Below, piece after piece: positions 6,933 to 61,503 of a stretch of 64,000 nucleotides of DNA. Numbering within the stretch: position 1 is the first letter of the stretch; every line of letters starts with the position of its first letter. This stretch comes from an uncultured Stakelama sp. (lineage in GTDB: Bacteria; Pseudomonadota; Alphaproteobacteria; Sphingomonadales; Sphingomonadaceae). The position numbers were made by a program, and so were the translations under genes. The stretch is from assembly GCA_964649315.1 (NCBI GenBank), contig CAZYOU010000002.1, positions 1,379 to 65,378 on the forward strand, given 5' to 3'. Under the pieces are notes generated by a model. The model made no database searches. It saw only the letters and a program-made list of their open reading frames with translations, and was not told where the DNA came from.

Positions 6933-7789
6933 GGCATGTTCACCAGCTAAAGATCGGCCCGGTCGGTTTCCGGATCGGATCGGACTGGCAACGACCGATC
7001 GATCAGCTGCGCGATCTCTATACCGATTACCCCGGCCCGGATGATTGCGTTCCAGATTTCACCGTCCGGCTGTTCGCGGCGCGGCCGTGGCGGCGGTTCA
7101 TCCGCCCGTCGGTGATGATCGGGGGGGATTTCGTTCTGCCCGAAGCCGCCCCGCTGCCGCTCGCGCAGGGCTTGTTAGCGGCGGAAATGGGGATGAACCT
7201 GCAAATGGCGCTCGGCCAGCGGCGCTATCTGCTGCTCCATGCCTCGGTCGTCGAGCGCGACGGCCGGGCGTTGTTGATGACCGGCGAATCCGGGGCGGGC
7301 AAATCGACGCTGGCGGCAATGCTCGCCGCACGGGGCTGGCGGCTGATGGGCGATGAATTCGCGCTGGTCGATCCAGCGACTGGCTTGGTTCATGCTTTTC
7401 CCCGGCTGATCAGCCTGAAGAACGCGGCGATTGGCGTGATGGAAATGGCGCTGCCGGACGCCCGGTTCGGGCCGTTGCTCGCGGGGACGCCCAAGGGTGA
7501 CATCCGCCACCTGGTACCCGATGCCCGCGCGATCGCCGCGATGGACCAGCCGGCGCGCCCGGCATTGCTGCTGTTCCCGCGCTATGGCTTTGAGGCGGCG
7601 ACGCGTCCGGTCGGCCAGGGCGAGGTGTTCGTGCGGCTGACTCAGGCGTCGACCAATTATGTCGCGATGGGTGAGCGTGGGTTTGATGCGCTGTCGGGGC
7701 TTGTCGCCGCCGTGCCTAGCTGGGCGGTCGATTACCCTGATACCGATTCGGCGATTGACCAGGTCGAGACGTTATGGAGCGCGCTGTGA
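6929..7789 (+). CDS. HprK-related kinase A
   Basis: LLHASVVE..GRALLMTGESGAGKST (Walker A) and LMGDEF, typical of HPr-kinase-like enzymes; adjacent to a PqqD gene. Confidence 0.85.
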   Translation: MRHVHQLKIGPVGFRIGSDWQRPIDQLRDLYTDYPGPDDCVPDFTVRLFAARPWRRFIRPSVMIGGDFVLPEAAPLPLAQGLLAAEMGMNLQMALGQRRYLLLHASVVERDGRALLMTGESGAGKSTLAAMLAARGWRLMGDEFALVDPATGLVHAFPRLISLKNAAIGVMEMALPDARFGPLLAGTPKGDIRHLVPDARAIAAMDQPARPALLLFPRYGFEAATRPVGQGEVFVRLTQASTNYVAMGERGFDALSGLVAAVPSWAVDYPDTDSAIDQVETLWSAL

Positions 7790-8814
7790 CGCGCCGGGCC
7801 GACGGATGGTTGCTCGCCGGCGTGCTGCGCGATCCAGCAAGCAGCGCGGCGCTCGACGCGGACGGATGGACCGCGCTGCTTGCCATTGCCCGTGCGGAGC
7901 AATTGATCGGCTCGCTCGCGCACCGGCTTGATGGGCTGCCCCTGCCTGATGCCGCGGCGCGTATCCTTAGCGATGCCCGTGCATCCGCCGAACAAGGCCG
8001 CGTGGCGGCGCTTTGGGAGGCGGAGATGGCGCGCCGCATCCTAACGCCCCTCGACTGCCCGGTCGTGCTGCTGAAGGGCACCGCGTTCGTCGCGGCGGGG
8101 CTGGCGGCAGGGCAGGGGCGATCGATCGGTGATCTCGACATATTGGTGCCGCGCGGCACGCTGGATGATGTCGAGGCGGCGCTGATCGCAGGCGGCTGGG
8201 AATGGGTGAAGCCCGATCCGTATGACGACGCTTATTATCGCCGCTGGATGCACGAGCTGCCCCCGCTGATCCACCGTGACCGCGATCGGATGATCGATGT
8301 GCACCACACCATCCTGCCGCTCACCGCGCGGATCACGCCCGATCCAGCGGCGATCATCGCCGACAGCACGGTGCTCCAAAATGGCCTGCGCCTGCCGAGC
8401 GTGCCCGATATGCTGGTTCATGCCGCCGCCCACCTGTTCGCCGATGGCGATCTGGCCGGGGGGATGCGCAATCTGTGGGATGTGCACCGGCTGATCGAGG
8501 AATTCGGGCTGGAAGGGGTGGCGGCGCGTGCGGCGCATCACGGTCTGTCGGCTGAGATGGCGCGCGCCGTCCGACTTTCGGCGGCGCTGTACGCCAGGGA
8601 TGTCACCGATACGCGTGACAAGCTGACATTGATCGACCGGCTGTACCTGCGACGGCTGACCGCGCGGGATGAATGGGGCCGCGCGGTGCGCCCGGTAACG
8701 CGATTGGCCTTTTACATTCGCTCGCATGTATTGCGGATGCCGCCGCTCATGCTTGCCCGCCATTTATGGACGAAATGGCGGGGCGGTGGACCGAAAAACA
8801 ACGTGCTGCGCTGA
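7786..8814 (+). CDS. Nucleotidyltransferase family protein (NTP_transf_5-like)
   Basis: VLLKG...GR.IGDLDILV (DxD, Pol-beta-like) and IDVHH; GTG 7786 overlaps the kinase TGA (GTGA). Confidence 0.8.
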   Translation: MTRRADGWLLAGVLRDPASSAALDADGWTALLAIARAEQLIGSLAHRLDGLPLPDAAARILSDARASAEQGRVAALWEAEMARRILTPLDCPVVLLKGTAFVAAGLAAGQGRSIGDLDILVPRGTLDDVEAALIAGGWEWVKPDPYDDAYYRRWMHELPPLIHRDRDRMIDVHHTILPLTARITPDPAAIIADSTVLQNGLRLPSVPDMLVHAAAHLFADGDLAGGMRNLWDVHRLIEEFGLEGVAARAAHHGLSAEMARAVRLSAALYARDVTDTRDKLTLIDRLYLRRLTARDEWGRAVRPVTRLAFYIRSHVLRMPPLMLARHLWTKWRGGGPKNNVLR

Positions 8815-8817
8815 TGC

Positions 8818-8846
8818 TTGCGCGGGCGGATTGTGCTCGGTATAGG
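8818..8846 (+). promoter_or_regulatory. Sigma70-type promoter for tRNA-Pro
   Basis: TTGCGC-N17-TATAGG followed by a GC-rich discriminator. Confidence 0.55.
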
Positions 8847-8898
8847 CGCGCTTCCAAGCTTATCGCGACCGGCTGCCATGCAGCGCGCCGCACTCCGT

Positions 8899-8975
8899 CG
8901 GGGAGTAGCTCAGCCTGGTAGAGCACTGCCTTCGGGAGGCAGGGGCCGGAGGTTCGAATCCTCTCTTCCCGACCA
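8899..8975 (+). tRNA. tRNA-Pro (anticodon CGG)
   Basis: Acceptor stem CGGGGAG/CTTCCCG, anticodon stem CTGCC/GGCAG with loop TTCGGGA, T-loop GGTTCGAATCC, encoded CCA. Confidence 0.97.
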
Positions 8976-9137
8976 CTCTCAACCCGAACTTTTGACGTTG
9001 TAGCATCCGCGGCAGGCAGAGCTTTTTGCTGTGTCGCGCTCATCTTTGCTCAGCACCCCCACAGGCTCGGCGATCACCGTGCCTCGGATTATCGAAGCAA
9101 CATAAGGCTCACCATCCTCACATTTACATCTAAATAC

Positions 9138-9162
9138 GCTAATGAGAATCATTGTCATTAGC
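9138..9162 (+). promoter_or_regulatory. Fur-type iron box (25-bp near-perfect palindrome)
   Basis: GCTAATGAGAATCATTGTCATTAGC; the first 19 nt match GATAATGATAATCATTATC at 16/19; immediately upstream of a TonB receptor. Confidence 0.8.
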
Positions 9163-9183
9163 GACCATGCGCGCTAGCCACAT

Positions 9184-11409
9184 TTGCGAGTGATTCGCAA
9201 AAGGGGTGTTGCTGTGTTCTTATCTTCCGTATCGTTGGTCGCGTTGCTGGCCGCCGCTGGTCCCATATCTGTCGGGGTTGCAGCCGACACGCTCGATGGA
9301 AACGGCCAGCGCGACATCATTGTCACCGCAACGCGGTCGCCATTGGCTGCACAAGATGCGCCCGCAACCGTGACGGTCAAATCCGATGAAGAAATCGCCG
9401 ACGAGCTGGCGACTGACATCAAGGATCTGGTGCGCTTTGAGGCGGGAGTCAGCGTCAGGCGGGCACCCGCGCGGTTCGGGGCGGCGTTCGGCACCACCGG
9501 ACGGGCGGGGAATGAAGGGTTCGTCATCCGCGGCATTGGCGGCAACCGGGTGCTGATCCAGGTCGATGGTGTCCGCGTACCCTATGGTTTTACCTTTGGC
9601 GCACAGGATGCCGGGCGGGGCGATTATGTTGATATCGGCCTCGTTAAATCGGTCGAATTTCTGCGCGGACCTGCATCGGCATTGTATGGCAGCGATGGCC
9701 TGGCTGGCGCGGTAAGCTTCGTCACGAGCGATCCGGTCGATATTCTGCGCGACAAGTCGGTCGGCGGGCTTGTGCGGGCGCAGTATAATTCGTCCGATAA
9801 TGAATTCACCGAAACCGCGATCCTGGCCGCGCGCAGCGGATCATGGTCGGCAATGGCGGCGTTTACCCGACGCGATTTCAATGAGCTCGACAATCAGGCG
9901 ACCGTTGGCGGTACCGGGGTGACGCGCAGCCTGCCCAACCCGCAGGACGGCCAGTCGAATGCTGCGCTTGCCAAAATCGTTTATGCGCCCGGCAATGGTC
10001 ACCGGGTTCGATTGACCGGCGAATATCTCGACAATCGGCTGTTCACTGATGTGCTCACCGGGCAAAGCGGCACCGTCGACCGACTGACTGCGCTCGACAC
10101 CGGTCAGCGCTGGCGGGTGGGCGGCGACTGGACCTTCGACGGCACTGGTACGCTCGAATTCGCCCGGTTGGGCGTGTACTGGCAGGACGCCGCCGATCGC
10201 CAGTTCAGCGATGAGGATCGGCGCGTGCTTGCCGACCGTGAACGGCTGAACACGCTCTACAACCGGGTTTATGGCGCCTCGGCAGAAGCGCGGCTGCGCT
10301 TTGCGACCGGGGCGGTGCAGCACCGCCTCATCATCGGCGGCGATATAAGCGTGTTGCGCCAGAGCGGCTTGCGTGACGGAGTCGTTCCCCCCTTTGGCGA
10401 GACTTTCCCGACGCGGGCTTTTCCGACCACCGATTTCACGCTCGCAGGGGCGTTCATTGGCGATGAACTAACGGTCGGGCCGGTGGCACTTTATCCCGCG
10501 CTGCGGTTCGATCATTATCGCCTGTCGCCGGAAAATGATCCGACGCTGATCGGTTTCACCGCCGGCGGACAGACCGGGCAGCGGGTGAGCCCCAAGATCG
10601 GCACCATTGTGAAACTGGGCGGGGTGTTTCGTGTGTTCGCCAGCTATGCGCGCGGCTTTCGGGCGCCAGAGCCGGGGCAGATTAACCAGTTTTTCGTCAA
10701 TCTGCCATCCGGATACACGTCGATCACCAACCCCGATCTGCGGCCGGAAACCAGCGAGAGCATCGAGGCAGGGCTGCGGCTGAACACGACCATGATCGAC
10801 GCGTCGGTCAGCGTGTTTCAGGCCGACTATGACGATTTCATCAGCCAGGAAATGGTGAGCGGCGGGTTCACGCCTGCCAACCCGGCGGTGTTCCAGTTCA
10901 TCAACCTCGATCGTGCCCAGGTGAAGGGTGCCGAGGCTCGGGTCGATGCGCGGGCCGGGGCGGGCTTCACCGGATCGCTCGCCGTTTCCTACGCGCAAGG
11001 GGATCAGATCGCACCTAGTGGTGTCCGCAGGCCGCTGGCAACGATCGACCCGTTGAAGGTCGTGGCCGGCCTTGGCTGGCGGGAGCGGGCCGGTCGGTTC
11101 GGCGGGCAACTGATCGTCACCCACAGCGCGCGCAAGGCAATGAATGCCGTAACGGGTGTGTGCACTGGCGAGTGTTTTCGCCCCAATGCGTTCACGATCA
11201 TCGACGCAACCGCCTTTGCCCGCCTGAACGAGCGGCTGATCCTGCGCGCGGGCATCTTCAACCTGACCGACGCGACCTATGGCTGGTGGTCCGACGTTCG
11301 CGGTCTGGCGGTGCCTCGGCCGCTACCCGCAGGCGCAATGGATACGCCACCCGCGGCCTTCACCCAGCCCGGTCGGAACGCCAGTTTTTCGCTCAGTTAT
11401 CGTTTCTAA
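9184..11409 (+). CDS. TonB-dependent receptor, heme/hemoglobin-receptor-like
   Basis: Signal peptide, IIVTATR, plug motif RGPASALYGSDGLAG, FRAP and NPDL motifs, C-terminal FSLSYRF. Confidence 0.85.
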   Translation: MRVIRKRGVAVFLSSVSLVALLAAAGPISVGVAADTLDGNGQRDIIVTATRSPLAAQDAPATVTVKSDEEIADELATDIKDLVRFEAGVSVRRAPARFGAAFGTTGRAGNEGFVIRGIGGNRVLIQVDGVRVPYGFTFGAQDAGRGDYVDIGLVKSVEFLRGPASALYGSDGLAGAVSFVTSDPVDILRDKSVGGLVRAQYNSSDNEFTETAILAARSGSWSAMAAFTRRDFNELDNQATVGGTGVTRSLPNPQDGQSNAALAKIVYAPGNGHRVRLTGEYLDNRLFTDVLTGQSGTVDRLTALDTGQRWRVGGDWTFDGTGTLEFARLGVYWQDAADRQFSDEDRRVLADRERLNTLYNRVYGASAEARLRFATGAVQHRLIIGGDISVLRQSGLRDGVVPPFGETFPTRAFPTTDFTLAGAFIGDELTVGPVALYPALRFDHYRLSPENDPTLIGFTAGGQTGQRVSPKIGTIVKLGGVFRVFASYARGFRAPEPGQINQFFVNLPSGYTSITNPDLRPETSESIEAGLRLNTTMIDASVSVFQADYDDFISQEMVSGGFTPANPAVFQFINLDRAQVKGAEARVDARAGAGFTGSLAVSYAQGDQIAPSGVRRPLATIDPLKVVAGLGWRERAGRFGGQLIVTHSARKAMNAVTGVCTGECFRPNAFTIIDATAFARLNERLILRAGIFNLTDATYGWWSDVRGLAVPRPLPAGAMDTPPAAFTQPGRNASFSLSYRF

Positions 11410-13616: not shown

Positions 13617-15311
13617 ATGTTACTTATTGATGTTCTTCAATCAAGAAAAAATCAGATCATTTTTGCCGTTTTGATAGTCTCAATTTTAATGAGGCTAAAT
13701 GGTGCTACTTATGGTTTGCCAGCATTGCTCGATCCCGATGAACCGTTCTTTATGATTACCGGCTTGAAGATGATCAGGAACCAATCGTTCAACCCTGAAT
13801 GGTTTGGGCATCCGGGCACGACGATGCTTTATGCCGTCGCAACGATTGAAGCGAGTGTGTACGCCATCGGGCTGGCAAGCGGCCGTTTTGCCAGCGCGGA
13901 GGCATTTGCTGCTGCCGCTTATCAGGACCCTGGTATCATCTTCATGCCGGTCCGCTATTTTTTCATCCTTTGCGGCGCGGCGTGCGTGTTTCTCACAATC
14001 AGGATAACCGATCGCCTGTTCGGAACGCGTCCCGCGCTGATTGCGGGACTGTTACTGGCGATCAATCCGCTGCACATCAAATGGTCGCAGGTCGTGCGCA
14101 CCGACGTTCAGGCCACCGTTTTCATGCTGCTATGCGTGCTGGTGTCGATTACCGTGCTCGAACGGGGGCGGTGGCGCGATTATCTGATCGCCGGCGCGAT
14201 GGCGGGCTTGGCATGCGCCACCAAATGGCCCTGCGCGGTCATCATCCTGAGCGTGCTGGCGGCTGGTGTCGTAAGATTGACCCAGCAAACTGGGGAAGCG
14301 CGGCGTGAAATGCTGCGGATCGCAGCAGGTTTGATAGCTGCACCGGTCACGCTGGTGTTGGTCTCGCCCTATCTGCTCCTTGATCGCGCAACGGTGGTCA
14401 GTAATCTGGCGGGCGAGGCGCAATTGCATCATCTGGGTGCAACGGGCGGCAGTTTCTTATGGAATGTCGGCTGGTATCTCAGCAGTCCGCTCGGGGAATC
14501 GATCGGTGTTTTCGGCTTGGCGCTGGCAGCGGTGGGCATTGTCCTGATGGCCTATCGCTCACCCGGGGCGGCGGCGATACTGTTGCCGCCGGTGATCGTA
14601 TTTTTCGTCGCTATTTGCGGACAACGGATCATCTGGGGGCGCTGGATTTTGCCGCTGCTGCCCTTTGTGTCGATCTTTGCGGCGGTGGCGATCATGGCGT
14701 TTGCAGAGCAACTTCAACGCTTTGCGCGGCAACTCCCGCTGGTGGCGATGCAAGCGGCCGTTCTGGCTTTGATTGGCATACCGATGGTCGCCAAGGCGAA
14801 TGCTCAGGCAGTGGAGCGGCAGAACGATACCCGGTCGCGCGCTGCGGATTGGGCAAAGGCGAATGTGCCGCGCGGCAGCACGGTGATGCTCGAACATTTC
14901 GGGCTTGATCTGGTCGGGCAGCCCTGGGACTTTCTCACCCCGATCGGGGCGGCGGGCTGTGTCGATGCCACTGACTTTCTGAAGGGCAAAACAACTGCCG
15001 ATTTTGTTGGTGGGCTGCGCGGCAAATCGTCGGTGGTCGATCTTGGCACGATCGATCCGGCAAAGTTGTCCGGTTGCCGCGCCGATTTTGCCATTCTGTC
15101 AGATTTTGATCGCTACCGTGCTGAGGCATCCTTTTACGGGGAGGAGCTGAAAATCTATTACCGGTACATTCAGGGCGGTAAACAGGTAGCGCATTTCGCG
15201 CCAGCGGCGGGCATTTCGGGTGGCCCTGTGGTCAGAATCTTTCGGTTCGCGCCGCCCCGCAAGCCACGCCCTGCAGCAGGTCCCGGGTCGACCGTCGCGT
15301 CAAGCCAGTGA
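13617..15311 (+). CDS. GT-C fold glycosyltransferase (GT39/ArnT/PMT-like)
   Basis: N-terminal loop PDEP, multiple TM helices, LACATKW motif, C-terminal periplasmic domain. Confidence 0.8.
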   Translation: MLLIDVLQSRKNQIIFAVLIVSILMRLNGATYGLPALLDPDEPFFMITGLKMIRNQSFNPEWFGHPGTTMLYAVATIEASVYAIGLASGRFASAEAFAAAAYQDPGIIFMPVRYFFILCGAACVFLTIRITDRLFGTRPALIAGLLLAINPLHIKWSQVVRTDVQATVFMLLCVLVSITVLERGRWRDYLIAGAMAGLACATKWPCAVIILSVLAAGVVRLTQQTGEARREMLRIAAGLIAAPVTLVLVSPYLLLDRATVVSNLAGEAQLHHLGATGGSFLWNVGWYLSSPLGESIGVFGLALAAVGIVLMAYRSPGAAAILLPPVIVFFVAICGQRIIWGRWILPLLPFVSIFAAVAIMAFAEQLQRFARQLPLVAMQAAVLALIGIPMVAKANAQAVERQNDTRSRAADWAKANVPRGSTVMLEHFGLDLVGQPWDFLTPIGAAGCVDATDFLKGKTTADFVGGLRGKSSVVDLGTIDPAKLSGCRADFAILSDFDRYRAEASFYGEELKIYYRYIQGGKQVAHFAPAAGISGGPVVRIFRFAPPRKPRPAAGPGSTVASSQ

Positions 15312-21238: not shown

Positions 21239-23092
21239 TTGAGCAAAATCCGTTTGTCCGATTACGTCGCCCAGATCCTTGTCGATCACGGCGTGCGTCA
21301 TGTCTTCATGCTGACGGGCGGCGGTGCGATGCACCTGAACGATGCGCTCGGCCGGTCCGAAGGCCTGCGTTATGTCTGCTGCCATCACGAGCAGGCGCTC
21401 GCCATGGCTGCCGAAAGCTATACGCGCCTGTCGGGGCGCATTGCCGCGGTGAACGTGACGACCGGGCCTGGGGGCATCAATGCGCTGAACGGTGTCCACG
21501 GTGCCTATACCGATTCAATCGCGATGATCGTGCTGTCAGGCCAGGTGAAGCGCGAAACGCTTGCGAGCAATGCGCCCGTGCGGCTGCGTCAGTTGGGCGA
21601 TCAGGAAGCCGATACGATCGCAATCGTGAAGCCGATCACCAAATTCGCTGCGATGGTCACCGATCCGCAGGATATTCGGTACCTTATGGAAAAGGCGCTT
21701 TGGCTGGCAACGACTGGTCGGCCGGGCCCGGTATGGATTGATATTCCGATCGATATTCAGGCCATGCCAATTGATCCGACGACGCTGCGCGGCTTCGATC
21801 CTCGGATCGAGGGCTATGGCCGTGATTTTGCGCTGCCGGCCGAATATGGCTGGCTAACGGGCGAGCCCCTGCGTGATGCCGCGCGCAGCGTTGTCGCCGC
21901 ACTTCGCCAAGCCGAGCGCCCTGTGCTGCTGCCCGGAACCGGCGTGCGGATCAGCGGATCGCACGATGTGTTTCTGAAGATCGTCGAAAAGCTCGGCATT
22001 CCCGTCGCGCCGGGCTGGAATGCGCAGGACGTGGTCGACGACAGCAACCCCTGCTATGTTGGCCGACCCGGCACCGTTGGCGATCGTGCCGGTAACTTTA
22101 CCGTCCAAAATGCTGACTTGCTGCTCGTGTTCGGGTGCCGCCTGAACATTCGCCAGATCAGCTATAATTTCGCGGCTTTCGCGCGTGCTGCCAAAAAGAT
22201 CATGGTCGATATCGACGCGGCCGAAATCGCCAAACCAACGCTATCGATCGACATGCCGATCCATGCCGATCTGAAGACCTTTTTGCCGATCCTGCTCGAA
22301 GAGCTGGAAAGCTATGAAGCGCCGGCTGCCCATAAAACCTATCTCGATTGGGCGATGGAGCGGCGCCACCGCTACAACCCCGTGCTGCCCGAATATTGGG
22401 AGACCAAGGGCATCATCAACCCCTATTGCTTCACCGAAGTGTTGTTCGATCAGTTGCGCGAGAACGAAGTGATCGTGATGGCCGATGCGACCGCGGCAGT
22501 GGTGACGGTGCAGGCCGCGAAGCTGAAGCCTGGTCAGCGCATCTTTTCGAACTCAGGCGCGGCATCGATGGGCTATGATCTGCCGGCCACGATCGGCGCA
22601 TGGCACGCAATGCCTGAAGGCGCAGACCGGATCATCTGCATGGCCGGTGACGGATCGATCATGCAGAACCTTCAGGAATTGCAGACCATTATCGGGCAGA
22701 ATATCCCGGCAAAGGTCTTTCTCTACAATAACTCCGGCTACCACTCGATCCGCCAGGCACAGCAGGCGTATCTGAACGGTTTCTCTGTCGGATGCGGGCC
22801 TGATTCTGGTGTTACCTTCCCCGAATTCAGCAAGATCGTTCAGGCATTCGGTTTTGCCTATGTATCGACGACCGATCATGCCGATATGGACGAGGCTATC
22901 CGCAAGACGCTTGCCACCCCCGGGCCGGCGGTGTGCGAGGTATTCATCGACAAGAGCCAGAACTTTGCCCCTAAGGTATCGTCGCGGCGGCTTGAAGACG
23001 GGTCGATGGTCACCGCGCCGATGGAGGATCTTGCGCCGTTCCTTTCGCGCGAGGAACTGCAGAGCAACATGCTGATCCCGTTGATCAATTAG
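21239..23092 (+). CDS. Thiamine-diphosphate-dependent enzyme (acetolactate synthase/YerE-like carboligase)
   Basis: Catalytic Glu in CHHEQA, TTGPG, and the GDGS...YNNSGY ThDP motif; TTG 21239 after RBS CAGGAG. Confidence 0.88.
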   Translation: MSKIRLSDYVAQILVDHGVRHVFMLTGGGAMHLNDALGRSEGLRYVCCHHEQALAMAAESYTRLSGRIAAVNVTTGPGGINALNGVHGAYTDSIAMIVLSGQVKRETLASNAPVRLRQLGDQEADTIAIVKPITKFAAMVTDPQDIRYLMEKALWLATTGRPGPVWIDIPIDIQAMPIDPTTLRGFDPRIEGYGRDFALPAEYGWLTGEPLRDAARSVVAALRQAERPVLLPGTGVRISGSHDVFLKIVEKLGIPVAPGWNAQDVVDDSNPCYVGRPGTVGDRAGNFTVQNADLLLVFGCRLNIRQISYNFAAFARAAKKIMVDIDAAEIAKPTLSIDMPIHADLKTFLPILLEELESYEAPAAHKTYLDWAMERRHRYNPVLPEYWETKGIINPYCFTEVLFDQLRENEVIVMADATAAVVTVQAAKLKPGQRIFSNSGAASMGYDLPATIGAWHAMPEGADRIICMAGDGSIMQNLQELQTIIGQNIPAKVFLYNNSGYHSIRQAQQAYLNGFSVGCGPDSGVTFPEFSKIVQAFGFAYVSTTDHADMDEAIRKTLATPGPAVCEVFIDKSQNFAPKVSSRRLEDGSMVTAPMEDLAPFLSREELQSNMLIPLIN

Positions 23093-38446: not shown

Positions 38447-39277
38447 TCAGTCGTTCCCGCCAATCAAATCGCCCAGCCCGCCCAGCACCGATCCCTCACC
38501 ACGATTGCCGCCGCGTCCGCCTGCTGCCGCCAGCATTCGCCCGGCAAGGCGCGAGAAGGGCAGCGACTGGATCCACACCTTGCCCGGCCCGGTCAGCCGC
38601 GCAAAAAACAGCCCTTCGCCGCCGAACAACACGCTGCGGACGCCGCCTGCGGTCACCAGATCGAAATCGACGCTGGGGGTATAGGCGGCCAGGCACCCGG
38701 TATCGACATGAAGCTGCTCGCCGGGTTGCAAAATGCGCTCGACCACGGTGCCACCCATCTGGACGAACACCCAGCCATCGCCGTCCAGCTTCTGCATGAT
38801 GAAGCCCTCGCCGCCGAACAGCCCGGTCATCACCTTGCGCTGGAACGCAATGCCGATCGACACGCCCTTGGCCGCCGCCAGAAACGCATCCTTCTGGCAG
38901 ATCAGCGTGCCGCCCAGATCGGACAGCTTGATCGGCAGGATCGCGCCCGGCGTGGGGGCGGCAAAGGCAACGCGCGCCTTGCCGGTGCCGTTATGCGTGA
39001 ACACGGTGGTGAACAGGCTTTCCCCTGTCACCAGTCGTTTGCCCGCACCGAGCAGCTTACCCATGAACCCGCCACCCGCATCGCCGCTGCCGTCGCCGAA
39101 CACCGTCGTCATGCCGATCGACGCGTCCTTCCACACAAAGGCACCGGCTTCCGCGACCGCGCTCTCGCCCGGATCGAGCTCGATCTCGACGAACTGGAGT
39201 TCCTGACCCTTGATCTCGAAATCGATATCGTCGGCCACACCTGCGGATCGGCTATGCTGCCAGGGGCTCTGCGTCAT
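38447..39277 (-). CDS. TIGR00266/AIM24-family protein
   Basis: LDPGESAVAEAG, GESLF, CQKDAFLAA, FGGEGF, QSLPFSRLA. Confidence 0.9.
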   Translation of the reverse strand: MTQSPWQHSRSAGVADDIDFEIKGQELQFVEIELDPGESAVAEAGAFVWKDASIGMTTVFGDGSGDAGGGFMGKLLGAGKRLVTGESLFTTVFTHNGTGKARVAFAAPTPGAILPIKLSDLGGTLICQKDAFLAAAKGVSIGIAFQRKVMTGLFGGEGFIMQKLDGDGWVFVQMGGTVVERILQPGEQLHVDTGCLAAYTPSVDFDLVTAGGVRSVLFGGEGLFFARLTGPGKVWIQSLPFSRLAGRMLAAAGGRGGNRGEGSVLGGLGDLIGGND

Positions 39278-39388: not shown

Positions 39389-39416
39389 ATGTCCGGTTCT
39401 GCCCTCAAGCGGACAT
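39389..39416. repeat. 28-bp imperfect palindrome (11-6-11), site 1
   Basis: ATGTCCGGTTC TGCCCT CAAGCGGACAT; arms complementary at 9/11. Confidence 0.75.
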
Positions 39417-39423
39417 TCTGAGC

Positions 39424-39451
39424 GGGTCCGTTATTGATCCCCGACGGACGT
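39424..39451. repeat. 28-bp site 1b, overlapping the orphan ORF stop codon
   Basis: GGGTCCGTTAT TGATCC CCGACGGACGT; same GTCCG-N14-CGGAC geometry as site 1. Confidence 0.6.
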
Positions 39452-39838
39452 TGGCAGATTGCTCACAATGTCGGCGATTTCAGGGTCGGTGAACTCTGCA
39501 ATCGGATTATCGCTTTTGTCGGGCGTGCGATGAAACTCGCCCGCGTCGAAGGCTTCGTAAACGCGCCAGAAAAGCTTTGGCCACGGGGGTGGTGGCTCGG
39601 TGAGTTGCCTCTTAATTATTGTCCCGTAGAGGTCATTTACGACCCAATCACAGAACTCAAATGAGTAGCGTCGTCCATGGTAACCGCGCGCCAGTTCTGC
39701 CCCGATATCATCGTATAGCTGCCGCTCGCTGTCCGACCATCCAGCCGTCCACCGACGAATATCGGCCTCCGAAGTTGATCGGCCATCCTCTGACAGGCGG
39801 CGTTCAAGTTCAGCAAGGATATCGGTCGGACGAAACAT
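39431..39838 (-). CDS. Orphan hypothetical protein (~135 aa), lower GC, aromatic-rich
   Basis: Open frame from MFRPTD; hand-counted GC in the mid-50s percent, below the flanks; bracketed by 28-bp sites. Confidence 0.65.
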   Translation of the reverse strand: MFRPTDILAELERRLSEDGRSTSEADIRRWTAGWSDSERQLYDDIGAELARGYHGRRYSFEFCDWVVNDLYGTIIKRQLTEPPPPWPKLFWRVYEAFDAGEFHRTPDKSDNPIAEFTDPEIADIVSNLPTSVGDQ

Positions 39839-39859
39839 CAGACAATGATGCCTTATCGG

Positions 39860-39887
39860 ACGTCTCCTTTCCACCACTTCCAGACAT
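39860..39887. repeat. 28-bp degenerate site 2, upstream of the orphan ORF
   Basis: ACGTCTCCTTT CCACCA CTTCCAGACAT; GTC and GAC at the same positions as site 1, and both end GACATTC. Confidence 0.55.
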
Positions 39888-39918
39888 TCGCGGCGGGTCG
39901 GTAAATGCCGGTCTCGCC

Positions 39919-41586
39919 CTAAAACAACCCCTCAATCCGCCCCTCATCATCGAACCCGATCGCCTCCGCCGCCGGCACGCGCGGCAGGCCGGGCATTGTC
40001 ATGATCTCCCCGCACACCGCCACGACAAAGCCCGCCCCCGCCGCCAGCCGAACTTCGCGGATATGGACCGTGTGGCCGGTCGGTGCGCCGAGCGCGGTCG
40101 GATCGGTGGAAAAGCTGTACTGCGTCTTTGCGATGCACACGGGCAGATGCCCGAACCCCGCTGCCTCGAACCGCGCAAGCTGCGCGACGATCGCCGGTTC
40201 GGCATCGACACTCCCTGCGCGGTAGAGTCGGGTCGCGACCGTCTTGATCTTGTCGAGCAGCGGCAGGCCATCGTCATAGAGCGGCGCGAACTGCGCTGAT
40301 CCGCTTTCCGCGAGCGCGGCGACCGCATCGGCAAGCTGGGTCGCGCCCGCGCCGCCTTCGGCCCAGTGGCGGCACAGGATCGCCTGCACGCCGTGCGCGG
40401 CGGCGATATCGCGCAGCGCTTGGATTTCGGCGTCGCTGTCGGTGCCGAAATGGTTGATCGCCACCACCGCAGGCACCCCGAACTGGCGGACATTCTCGAT
40501 ATGCCGCACCAGATTGGCCGCTCCGCGATTGACCGCGTCCACGTCCTCTCGCCCCAGATCGACCTTGGCGACGCCACCGTTCATCTTCAGCGCACGCACC
40601 GTGGCGACGATCACGACCGCAGCGGGCGCCAGACCGGCCTGACGGCATTTGATGTCGAAGAATTTCTCTGCGCCCAGATCGGCCCCGAACCCCGCTTCGG
40701 TGACGACGTAATCGGCGAGCCCCAGCGCGGCGCGGGTCGCGATCACCGAATTGCAGCCATGCGCGATATTGGCGAACGGCCCGCCATGAATGAAGGCCGG
40801 GTTGCCGCCGAGTGTCTGCACCAGATTGGGCTTGATCGCCTCAGCCAGCAGCACCGCCGTGGCGCCGTCCGCCTTCAGGTCATGCGCGGTCACCGGTGTC
40901 CGGTCACGGGTATAGCCCACGACGATCCGGGCGAGCCGATCGCGCAGATCGGCCGGGTCGCGCGCCAGGCAGAGGATCGCCATCACTTCGGAGGCGACGG
41001 TGATGTCGAAGCCCGATTCGCGGGGGTAGCCATTGCCGGTGCCGCCAAGCGACTGAACGATCTGTCGCAGCGCGCGATCATTCATATCCATGGCCCGCCG
41101 CCACACCACGCGGCGCACGTCGATACCAAGCGTATTGCCCCAGTGGATATGATTGTCGAGCATCGCCGCGAGCAGGTTGTGTGCCGCGGTGGTCGCGTGG
41201 AAATCACCCGTGAAATGCAGGTTGATGTCCTCCATCGGCACCACCTGCGCATGGCCGCCGCCGGTCGCACCGCCCTTTTGCCCGAAGCACGGCCCGAGCG
41301 ATGGCTCGCGCAGGCACAGCATCGTCTTTCGCCCGGTAAGATTCAGCGCATCGGCCAGGCCCACTGACGTCGTGGTTTTCCCCTCGCCCGCCGGCGTGGG
41401 GCTGATCGCGGTGACGAGGATCAGATGCCCGCTCTTGCCGTCGCGCTGAGGCAGCGCGGCTGGGTCGACCTTGGCCTTGTGGCGGCCGTAAGGTTCGATC
41501 GCGTCGTCGGGGATGCCCGCCTTGGCGGCAATCGCGGCGATCGGCTGGAGCGGATAGTCGCGGGCGATTTCGATGTCGGTTTGCAT
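39919..41586 (-). CDS. fhs: Formate-tetrahydrofolate ligase
   Basis: [48 protein letters not shown]. Confidence 0.97.
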
Positions 41587-60258: not shown

Positions 60259-61503
60259 ATGGCCAAGACAGCAACGCCCAACCGCATTCGCGGCACTCAG
60301 GACATCTTCGGCGACGACCAACGGCGCTTTGCGCATGTGGTCGAAGCGTTTGAACGCGTTCGAAAACTCTATTGTTTTCAGCGGGTCGAACTGCCGGTGT
60401 TCGAAGCGACGGCTGTGTTCGCACGTTCGCTGGGCGAGACGACCGATGTCGTGTCGAAGGAAATGTACACCTTCGACGATCGCGGCGGCGATTCGATCAC
60501 ATTGCGCCCCGAATTCACCGCCGGCATCGCGCGCGCTTTCCTGACCGAGGGGTGGCAGCAATATACGCCGCTGAAGATCGTCAGCCACGGTCCGGTGTTC
60601 CGGTACGAGCGACCGCAAAAGGGGCGGTATCGGCAATTCCACCAGATTGATGCCGAGATCATCGGCGCGGCTGAACCCGCCGCCGATGTCGAATTGCTGG
60701 TGTTCGCTGATCAGCTGATCCGTGAGCTGGGGATATCGGATGGGGTGACGCTGCAGCTCAACACGCTGGGCGATGCAGAGACGCGCGAGGCGTGGCGGGC
60801 GGCACTGGTCGCGCATTTCGAGGCGCATCGGGGGGAGCTTTCCGAGGACAGTCTGGCGCGGCTCGACAAGAACCCGATGCGGATTCTGGATTCGAAGGAC
60901 CCGCGCGACCGGCCGATTGCCGACAGCGCGCCGGGGATCGATGCGTATCTGACGAGCGAGGCGGGGGCATTTTTCGAGAGCGTCACGAAGGGGCTGGATG
61001 CAGCCGGGGTGGCGTGGACGCGCAACGACACTTTGGTGCGCGGGCTCGATTATTACCGCCACACCGCGTTTGAGTTCGTGACCGACCGGTTGGGCGCGCA
61101 GGGGACGGTGCTGGCGGGCGGGCGCTATGACGGGCTGATCGAGAGTTTGGGCGGAAAGCCGACCCCAGGCGTTGGCTGGGCGGCGGGGATTGAGCGGCTG
61201 GCGATGTTGTTGGGGGAATTGGCAGATACGAGAACAGAAGTCATAATTGCTGTCGAAGACGATGTCGCGATCGGGGCTGCATTTCACTCGCTCAAGCTCT
61301 TGCGCAGCAGTGGCTTGTCGGCTGAAATCGTTGCGGCGGGCTCACCGAAGAAGCGTTTTGAGAAAGCGGTCAAGAAAAACGGACGCGTGACTCTAAGTCT
61401 CACTGTTCGTGAAGGAATGCGCGCAACAAGCTCTGAAGACGACGCGGATCTATTGATTAGAGTAGCTCAAATCATCCCAATTGCGAACTTTGCGGCGAGA
61501 TGA
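60259..61503 (+). CDS. hisS: Histidine-tRNA ligase
   Basis: [47 protein letters not shown]; start reassigned to ATG 60259. Confidence 0.97.

Follow-up and report, generated by a model that had tools for sequence, protein, structure and literature searches.

We analysed a window of 64,000 nucleotides from an uncultured Stakelama sp. (positions 1,379 to 65,378 of contig CAZYOU010000002.1, here C2, in the 3.1-Mb GenBank assembly GCA_964649315.1, here G000). Between fhs, which encodes formate-tetrahydrofolate ligase, and a gene for an AIM24/TIGR00266 protein, the window encodes a small gene that is bracketed by short sites resembling one another. Our analysis suggests that this gene and its sites are probably a mobile cassette of an undescribed integron-like system in the window's own family, the Sphingomonadaceae in the GTDB sense. 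Read along the minus strand, on which all three genes lie, the features of the locus are as follows.

39919..41586, minus strand: fhs (PF01268, E 7.6e-261), upstream anchor gene, sharing its strand with the open reading frame (ORF) of the cassette
39883..39907, no strand assigned: imperfect direct repeat (76%) of 39412-39436, from a repeat search
39860..39887, minus strand: upstream junction site (site 2), plus-strand ACGTCTCCTTTCCACCACTTCCAGACAT, minus-strand ATGTCTGGAAG TGGTGG AAAGGAGACGT
39417..39859, no strand assigned: variable segment, the putative cassette proper, replaced by unrelated sequence in conspecific contigs L040 and L041
39431..39838, minus strand: cargo ORF of the cassette, 135 aa, with an ATG start
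39424..39451, minus strand: site 1b, plus-strand GGGTCCGTTATTGATCCCCGACGGACGT, minus-strand ACGTCCGT CGGGGATCAATA ACGGACCC
39389..39416, minus strand: downstream junction site (site 1), plus-strand ATGTCCGGTTCTGCCCTCAAGCGGACAT, minus-strand ATGTCCGCTTG AGGGCA GAACCGGACAT
38447..39277, minus strand: downstream anchor, an AIM24/TIGR00266 gene sharing its strand with the cargo ORF

An earlier sequence-only reading of this stretch had described three sites of identical geometry around an ORF of lower GC content, and both features are present: sites 1, 1b and 2 all carry GTC at positions 3-5 and GAC at positions 24-26, and the GC content of the ORF is 0.54-0.58 versus 0.62-0.71 in the flanks. Site 1 is an imperfect palindrome with 10-nt arms that are 90% complementary, as recovered by a repeat search of the window. 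Site 1b has 6-bp arms and, as that reading also had it, covers the end of the enclosed ORF, namely the stop codon and the last six codons. Site 2, viewed as a palindrome, has little in common beyond GTC and GAC. A fourth, weaker site proposed at 39904-39931 did not hold up, having neither the GTC/GAC geometry nor support in relatives; what lies there instead is the imperfect direct repeat at 39883-39907. This repeat duplicates, upstream of site 2, the spacer together with the right half of the A-type site (1b), of which it is a remnant, and it belongs to the locus rather than to the cassette because it is conserved in the L040 allele described below.

The two junction sites are each made of a part specific to this locus and a part shared with a wider site family. 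On the minus strand, the left arm of site 2 (GTCYGG) is locus-specific and its right part, GGTGGAAAG..GAC, is what we call the R-end of the family; the ATG of the cassette ORF follows this R-end after 23 nt. An extension of the ORF to a GTG codon at 39877 would overlap site 2, and all homologues use the same ATG. The left arm of site 1 is the family's L-end (AAYGTCCGC); its right arm, CCGGAC, is particular to the locus and forms the complement of site 2's left arm. Site 1b resembles an A-type variant (GTCCGC-AATGGGGTCGTTA-GCNGCC), which elsewhere stands ahead of the B-type site where junctions are composite, an assignment made by eye for the weakest of the three sites; its TAACGGACC is kept beside the homologue of the ORF in S. 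aliaeris (L001). Since composites join A- and B-type sites, the paired look of 1b and 1 in the window finds an explanation.

Other alleles of the same locus indicate that the segment between the sites is exchanged as a unit. Three metagenome contigs (L040, L041 and L042) encode an AIM24 protein identical to that of the window. L040 and L041 share with the window the end of fhs, the upstream site (which reads AATGTCCGGAATTGGTGGGAAGCGGACGTT), the downstream site (AACGTCCGCAAATGAGGCGAAACCGGACGT) and the right flank. When they are aligned to the window, divergence is total directly after ..GACGT of the upstream site, and homology is back at GAAYGTCCGC of the downstream site. Between these points lies a different insert of about 430 bp with a different, 110-aa ORF. 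L042 has a third sequence ahead of the same right flank, seen for about the last 130 nt that the contig reaches. The aquatic metagenome run X19, which also holds the window allele, yielded contig joints 39360->39867 and 39349->39923 that fit co-existing alternative alleles. Only one relative keeps fhs-AIM24 synteny, and in this nearest relative with the adjacency (AIM24 89% identical) the two genes are separated by a 170-bp spacer that has neither ORF nor sites. A scan of JGI metagenomes with the conserved right flank gave no match for further alleles or an empty site, and look-ups with two fhs proteins returned only alleles already known.

The hybrid nature of the junctions is visible in both alleles. 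They share the outer arms GTCYGG (upstream) and CCGGAC (downstream), versus GTCCGC and GCGGAC in the family consensus, and they differ in the inner parts of the sites; the right arm at the window locus also differs from that beside the closest homologue of the ORF, in S. aliaeris. Complementary outer arms would be expected if a chromosomal palindrome ATGTCCGG..CCGGACAT had been split by reciprocal recombination with a circular cassette, giving the order l-R-ORF-L-r.

The sites also accompany the gene to other places. Homologues of the ORF occur in five unrelated contexts in four genera, and the neighboring genes differ in each: in S. aliaeris the homologue adjoins an alcohol dehydrogenase gene, in a Sphingomonas sp. 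it lies within a polysaccharide cluster, in Novosphingobium it sits behind a trb type IV secretion operon, and Parablastomonas CN1-191 has two paralogues in a gene-poor island. In the window and at loci L001, L002, L003 and L022, an R-end ..GGTGGAAAGCGGAC(GTT) ends 23-24 nt ahead of the ATG, and in the window and four homologue contexts a site starting AAYGTCCGC is found 0-20 nt past the stop codon. A distant homologue in a core region (L024, 46% identity) is without sites. The same association is seen in two further cassette families. The 110-aa ORF of the L040 allele has a 42%-identical homologue in another genus (G298), which is preceded by ..GGGGTGGAAAGCGGTCGTT and has GTCCGCTATCGGGTCGTAAGCGGAA downstream. 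In a pair of cassettes from Parablastomonas (G001) and G398, sequences are about 70% identical exactly from the R-end to the start of the next site and unrelated beyond, and here the ORF and the sites are on opposite strands. In the window's own genome, four more small low-GC ORFs are bracketed by sites, one on C9, two on C12 and one on C27.

Comparison of these copies defines a site of about 28-31 bp with the consensus AAYGTCCGC-AATGGGTGGAAA-GCGGACRTT. The asymmetric, G-rich center gives it a direction and is itself conserved in sequence, cassette sites reading ..GCAAT-GGGTGG-AAAGC.. at this position. Sites can double, A-type with B-type, into composites of 75-133 nt. The long Parablastomonas repeat consists of an A type (GTCCGC-AATGGGGTCGTTA-GCGGCT), a spacer and a B type (GTCCTA-GATTAGGGTGGAAA-GCGGAC); the arms of B-type sites are palindromic, and A-type sites are neither palindromic nor complementary. 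In other genera the plain 28-31-bp B form is usual, as in G303, where three GAATGTCCGCAATGGGTGGAAAGCGGACGTT-like sites lie 330-350 bp apart.

Parablastomonas CN1-191 (CP186480.1; loci L002-L007) provides the most extensive example. A profile built from the repeat of about 130 nt finds 38 matches between 2,546,353 and 2,611,519, all 38 on the same strand, delimiting a 65-kb array of at least 38 sites, and just three weak matches elsewhere in the 2.69-Mb genome. The long repeats of this array are 90-99% identical over 120-133 nt, and the two paralogues of the window's ORF are single members of it. Smaller same-strand clusters occur in G234, G401, G303, G398 and G206, and dispersed sites are found around the chromosomes of G419, G361 and G398. 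Across arrays of up to 65 kb, mini-arrays and singletons, the cassettes are small accessory genes with almost no 5' leader that lie between successive same-strand sites, and copy number is about 10-40 sites per genome. Some units of the Parablastomonas array are large and encode histidine kinases or a K+ transporter.

Enrichment of the site is restricted to one family. We scanned 401 genomes of the order with a 15-nt R-end pattern, with the reversed pattern as control, and found 8-22 matches in 29 genomes of the Sphingomonadaceae versus 0-2 for the control; no genome of the nine other families in the order exceeds two matches. The pattern is mostly at background in the window's own genus. Within G000, the strict form GTCCG-N14-CGGAC has eight matches versus 1-6 for every other spacing (4 to 30), and two of the eight are at this locus, 35 bp apart. 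The loose form GTC-N18-GAC is so common (964 matches in the genome) that site 2 by itself is uninformative on that pattern. A 28-mer consensus drawn by eye from site copies of other genera was more discriminating in a Hamming scan, with three genome matches at up to seven mismatches versus none for seven control words, site 2 being the closest of the three (6 mismatches). With a profile built from other genera only, site 2 ranks first in the window but weakly (8.2 bits, E 0.26), and the two L040 sites rank first (21.3 bits, E 2e-6; orthologous to site 2) and second (9.3 bits, E 0.015; orthologous to site 1). Our queries of the searchable literature turned up no account of the site, and the repeat is absent from the plasmids of PLSDB.

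Together, these observations make it reasonably probable that the ORF, with the sites on either side, is one mobile gene cassette, and that it belongs to an undescribed integron-like system found in the Sphingomonadaceae alone, with a recombinase that acts in trans. This reading is supported because conspecific contigs hold different genes between the same sites, and because the site recurs around the ORF in unrelated contexts, in arrays and in two further cassette families. It gains further support from the enrichment of the site in one family only, the patchiness of the ORF, the complementarity of the outer arms and the four additional brackets in G000. In the mechanism we envisage, a circular cassette with one site would recombine with a chromosomal copy of the site, the crossover falling inside the site or at its edges, and the product would be l-R-ORF-L-r with two hybrid sites. 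The reverse reaction would excise the cassette and so permit exchange at a fixed locus, with the recombinase acting in trans throughout.

The sequence-only reading had likewise proposed that a non-autonomous cassette of one gene, mobilized in trans, had inserted at the fhs 3' end, and the motif scan, the conspecific alleles and the ORF-less relative all speak in its favor. The scan of genome and relatives that it had suggested shows the motif flanking short variable ORFs and forming arrays. The comparison of fhs-AIM24 intervals that it had also suggested shows a different gene in conspecific contigs and neither ORF nor sites in the nearest relative; an empty site (l-r) was not seen. Its comparison of the sites with the 11-6-11 architecture of tyrosine-recombinase sites such as dif is right as regards the 28-bp geometry, but the kinship that this implies is not supported, the inner ATAA/TTAT of the family's true dif sites being missing and no tyrosine recombinase co-occurring, although one was looked for. 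It had noted that no recombinase or transposase is in the window, and our domain scans detect no tyrosine or serine recombinase domain on C2.

Several observations weigh against the cassette reading. The window's own sites are decayed members of the family, because the profile from other genera scores them weakly (8.2 bits for site 2, and of site 1 only the left arm) and ranks the orthologous L040 sites first and second. The centers of the two junction sites differ (TGGTGG versus AGGGCA), which counts against classical tyrosine-recombinase exchange within the spacer because such an exchange would not leave differing centers unless the sites decayed later. Either strand relative to the site can carry the cassette ORF, in contrast to most integron cassettes. 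Among the assembled contigs of public runs (no raw reads), we found neither an excised circle nor an empty site. Finally, no recombinase that co-occurs with the sites was found. The Parablastomonas array has none at its ends, where IS6 copies occur along with a truncated TrwC relaxase and a ParB-methylase gene (the histidine-kinase genes are internal to the array), and the four PF00589 matches of that genome, at 0.85, 1.04, 1.45 and 1.91 Mb, are all away from the array at 2.55-2.61 Mb. G206 has sites, including 16 exact R-end matches, but encodes only XerC, XerD and one P4-type integrase and has no PF00239 match, hence no serine recombinase.

Candidate enzymes near sites were rejected. P4-type integrases and IS6 are the only protein families that recur beside arrays, and these integrases are of the ordinary tRNA-island type, from several lineages and in inconsistent orientation. 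A tyrosine recombinase of about 210 aa, without an N-terminal domain, lies beside sites at L033 (G234:2,635,107-2,635,736) and L034 (G303:193,577-194,206). In the 401-genome set it is found in 101 genomes of the family (roughly a third of those sampled) and seven from other families, often in multiple copies or broken by stop codons. Six site-rich genomes lack it (G000, G001, G206, G401, G398 and G410), its enrichment in site-rich genomes is slight (about 45% versus 35%), and it probably belongs to another small mobile element. A 431-aa integrase beside the C12 mini-array is rare; none of its 11 close homologues has sites within 1.5 kb, and it has been recently mobile, because copies are 69-90% identical across several genera. 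Serine recombinases as a class were rejected on the evidence of G206, and REP-associated tyrosine transposases (RAYT) because PF01797 is absent from six of seven site-rich genomes. As a side observation, the region of the Parablastomonas array has several IS6 copies and a large serine recombinase about 8 kb upstream.

For exchange, though not for first insertions, a live alternative is homologous recombination by way of the repeats, in favor of which speaks that no recombinase co-occurs with the sites. On this explanation the cassettes are real but have no dedicated enzyme, and the sites (28-133 bp) together with flanking core genes provide portable homology for RecA recombination after DNA uptake, for example by gene transfer agents or conjugation. 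The long Parablastomonas repeats would suffice for such recombination, and the flanking genes could be the route by which the replacement at fhs-AIM24 spreads within the species. However, most sites are only about 28 bp and diverged, and thus poor substrates for RecA. This alternative also leaves unexplained how the same ORF was first inserted with the same precise ends at five unrelated loci in four genera, and how the complementary outer arms at the window locus came to be split. We regard it as unlikely.

It is more improbable still that the 28-mer is no recombination site but a palindrome of the repetitive extragenic palindromic (REP) or regulatory kind, such as an mRNA-stabilizing hairpin or a protein-binding site, that gathers beside horizontally acquired genes. 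Like REP elements, bacterial interspersed mosaic elements (BIMEs) and REPINs, the sites are short, imperfect intergenic palindromes, sometimes paired and specific to one family; B-type arms are palindromic, sites are scattered around many chromosomes (G419, G361 and G398), and some lie between ordinary-looking genes (L027). Unlike REP/REPIN-RAYT systems, however, they are of low copy and occur without a RAYT/Y1 transposase in six of seven site-rich genomes, and A-type sites are not palindromic. Site strand in the array is uniform (38/38) whatever the orientation of the genes, and the sites move precisely with their cargo, cassette homology beginning and ending exactly at sites in three families. 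A reading of the sites as terminators or promoters was rejected, as neither gave a match at the sites and the sites fold no better than shuffles; an Rfam scan of the window and L002 found no RNA family except one tRNA.

A role for the housekeeping recombinases, in which XerC/XerD moves cassettes between dif-like sites as proposed for Acinetobacter pdif modules and Xer-integrating elements, is if anything slightly less probable. The likeness to plasmid pdif modules and Xer elements is real: 28-bp sites of 11-6-11 geometry surround small gene modules that have no recombinase in cis and are exchanged between contexts. Moreover, XerC and XerD are the sole recombinases common to all site-bearing genomes examined, G206 having otherwise one P4-type integrase. 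The true dif of G000 (C4:15177-15204; TAGTCCGATAATATACATTATGTTAAAT, that is, TAGTCCGATAA TATACA TTATGTTAAAT) even has GTCCG in the same register as the cassette sites. In each of 11 genomes of the family the true dif has the form ..GATAA-N6-TTATGTWAA, with that of N. aromaticivorans compared from PMC2731167. In 10 site-rich genomes, the inner GATAA/TTATGT of dif is kept and the outer XerC arm is variable (TACGATG, GAGTATG, AGGATGG and others), so the shared GTCCG is a coincidence. Cassette sites, by contrast, keep GTCCGC and lack both the inner ATAA/TTAT motifs and a XerD-type arm. They are also direct repeats, all oriented one way in an array, whereas pdif sites alternate in orientation, and they are chromosomal, with no plasmid match in PLSDB.

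A resemblance to resolution sites is noted as a lead only. Site I of Tn3/gamma-delta res is a 28-bp site with inverted outer YGTCYG half-site ends, akin to the cassette site, and the composites of about 130 nt are about as long as a res region. Unlike in res, the inner half-sites of the cassette sites are G-rich rather than A/T-rich, and G206 has sites without any serine recombinase. Resolvases delete and normally do not integrate.

In organization, the system is close to integrons. Like integron cassettes, sedentary chromosomal arrays and attC-site clusters that have no integron-integrase (CALINs), it consists of small, promoterless, mostly one-gene units with a very short 5' leader and a site right after the stop codon. 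The sites of an array share one orientation, same-strand arrays extend over tens of kb, and content varies between strains. One cargo family can occur both in an array and as a singleton, and different cassettes occupy one locus in one species. It is unlike integrons in having a conserved 28-31-bp site with an asymmetric G-rich center rather than an attC hairpin defined by structure, many small dispersed clusters and singletons instead of one platform with attI and a cassette promoter (Pc), and cargo on either strand. No IntI-type integrase was found on C2 or in several site-bearing genomes by PF00589 scans (the IntI-specific TIGR02249 was not applied); several such genomes encode just two recombinases of Xer size besides tRNA-linked P4-type integrases. 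Folded as single strands, long and short sites gave no attC-like hairpin and were indistinguishable from shuffles (z 0.0 to -1.6), pairing being possible over no more than the outer 6-9 bp. The host class is also one reported to lack integrons: none of the 243 alpha-proteobacterial genomes in Cury et al. 2016 (PMC4889954) contained an integron, In0 or CALIN, which those authors described as an "extremely puzzling" absence. That the arrays are decayed CALINs whose attC sites have drifted is barely credible, since the layout, the short leaders, the site just past the stop and the AAC...GTT at the site's outer ends are outweighed by the missing integrase in array-bearing genomes, the lack of an extended R-L hairpin, a center that is a conserved sequence rather than a variable loop, the position of AAC/GTT outside the conserved arms and not inside as in R''/R', and the 243 genomes without integrons.

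Returning to the cassette reading, its broader form is one we put forward only tentatively, as a possibility short of even. In this form, the Sphingomonadaceae may have a means of gene capture that is shared across the family and serves in place of integrons in a class without them, relying on a conserved, double-stranded 28-bp site. Its recombinase would be neither IntI nor a resolvase, nor would it be XerC/XerD working on sites of the dif type; it would instead be a new enzyme family or a recruited housekeeping protein. The site defines cassettes, arrays and exchange hot-spots across a large alpha-proteobacterial family that includes many environmental, drinking-water and pollutant-degrading genera. 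If the system is confirmed, integron-style capture would have arisen, or been replaced, with different sites and a different enzyme, and the 28-mer would be a simple sequence handle for mining an accessory cassette pool from metagenomes. The hunt for the recombinase would also be well posed, with the site, its substrates and a polymorphic natural locus (fhs-AIM24) defined.

We also examined the cargo of the window's cassette. Its 37 homologues, of about 130 aa, have no Pfam domain; named hosts are Sphingomonas, Parablastomonas and Novosphingobium. The distribution is patchy, with a single, distant copy among 40 related genomes searched. The sequence itself matches nothing in Pfam, NCBIfam, PADLOC or PDB, and its best PHROGs match is non-significant (E 0.24). 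Against PLSDB plasmids there are distant matches only (33-36%), on Rhizobiales and Paraburkholderia replicons. An AlphaFold2 model built from 30 homologues predicts an all-helical protein of six helices (pLDDT 90), for which Foldseek found no match among solved structures (best E 1.2). A promoter and terminator search found no match at the sites and no promoter of the cassette's own; the ORF follows fhs on one and the same strand, and read-through probably accounts for its expression.

Other site-bounded units illustrate the range of cargo. On C9 of G000 (21699-22150), a low-GC ORF of 123 aa on the opposite strand is enclosed by two family sites, AGCGTCCGAAGGTGGTGGAAAGCGGACGTA and AATGTCCGCTAGTGGGGCGAAAGCGGAA, at a distance of 2.5 kb from a P4-type integrase that adjoins tRNA-Asn. 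On C12 (40295-41400), sites bracket an 80-aa ORF and a 200-aa ORF, the N-terminus of the latter looking DJ-1/PfpI-like by eye, and on C27 (13619-14016) they bracket a 96-aa membrane protein. In L027 (G401:795000-810000), positions 7666-10120 hold site-bounded units in a tRNA-Ser island, including a NuoB-like gene on its own and a protein resembling DUF983 by eye, which suggests that cassettes may carry copies of housekeeping-type genes. Elsewhere in the window, the right half of the site profile is matched in part at 61148-61163 (7.0 bits, E 0.6) and 13867-13887 (6.2 bits, E 1.1), probably by chance, and a tRNA gene at 8899-8972 is its only Rfam match.

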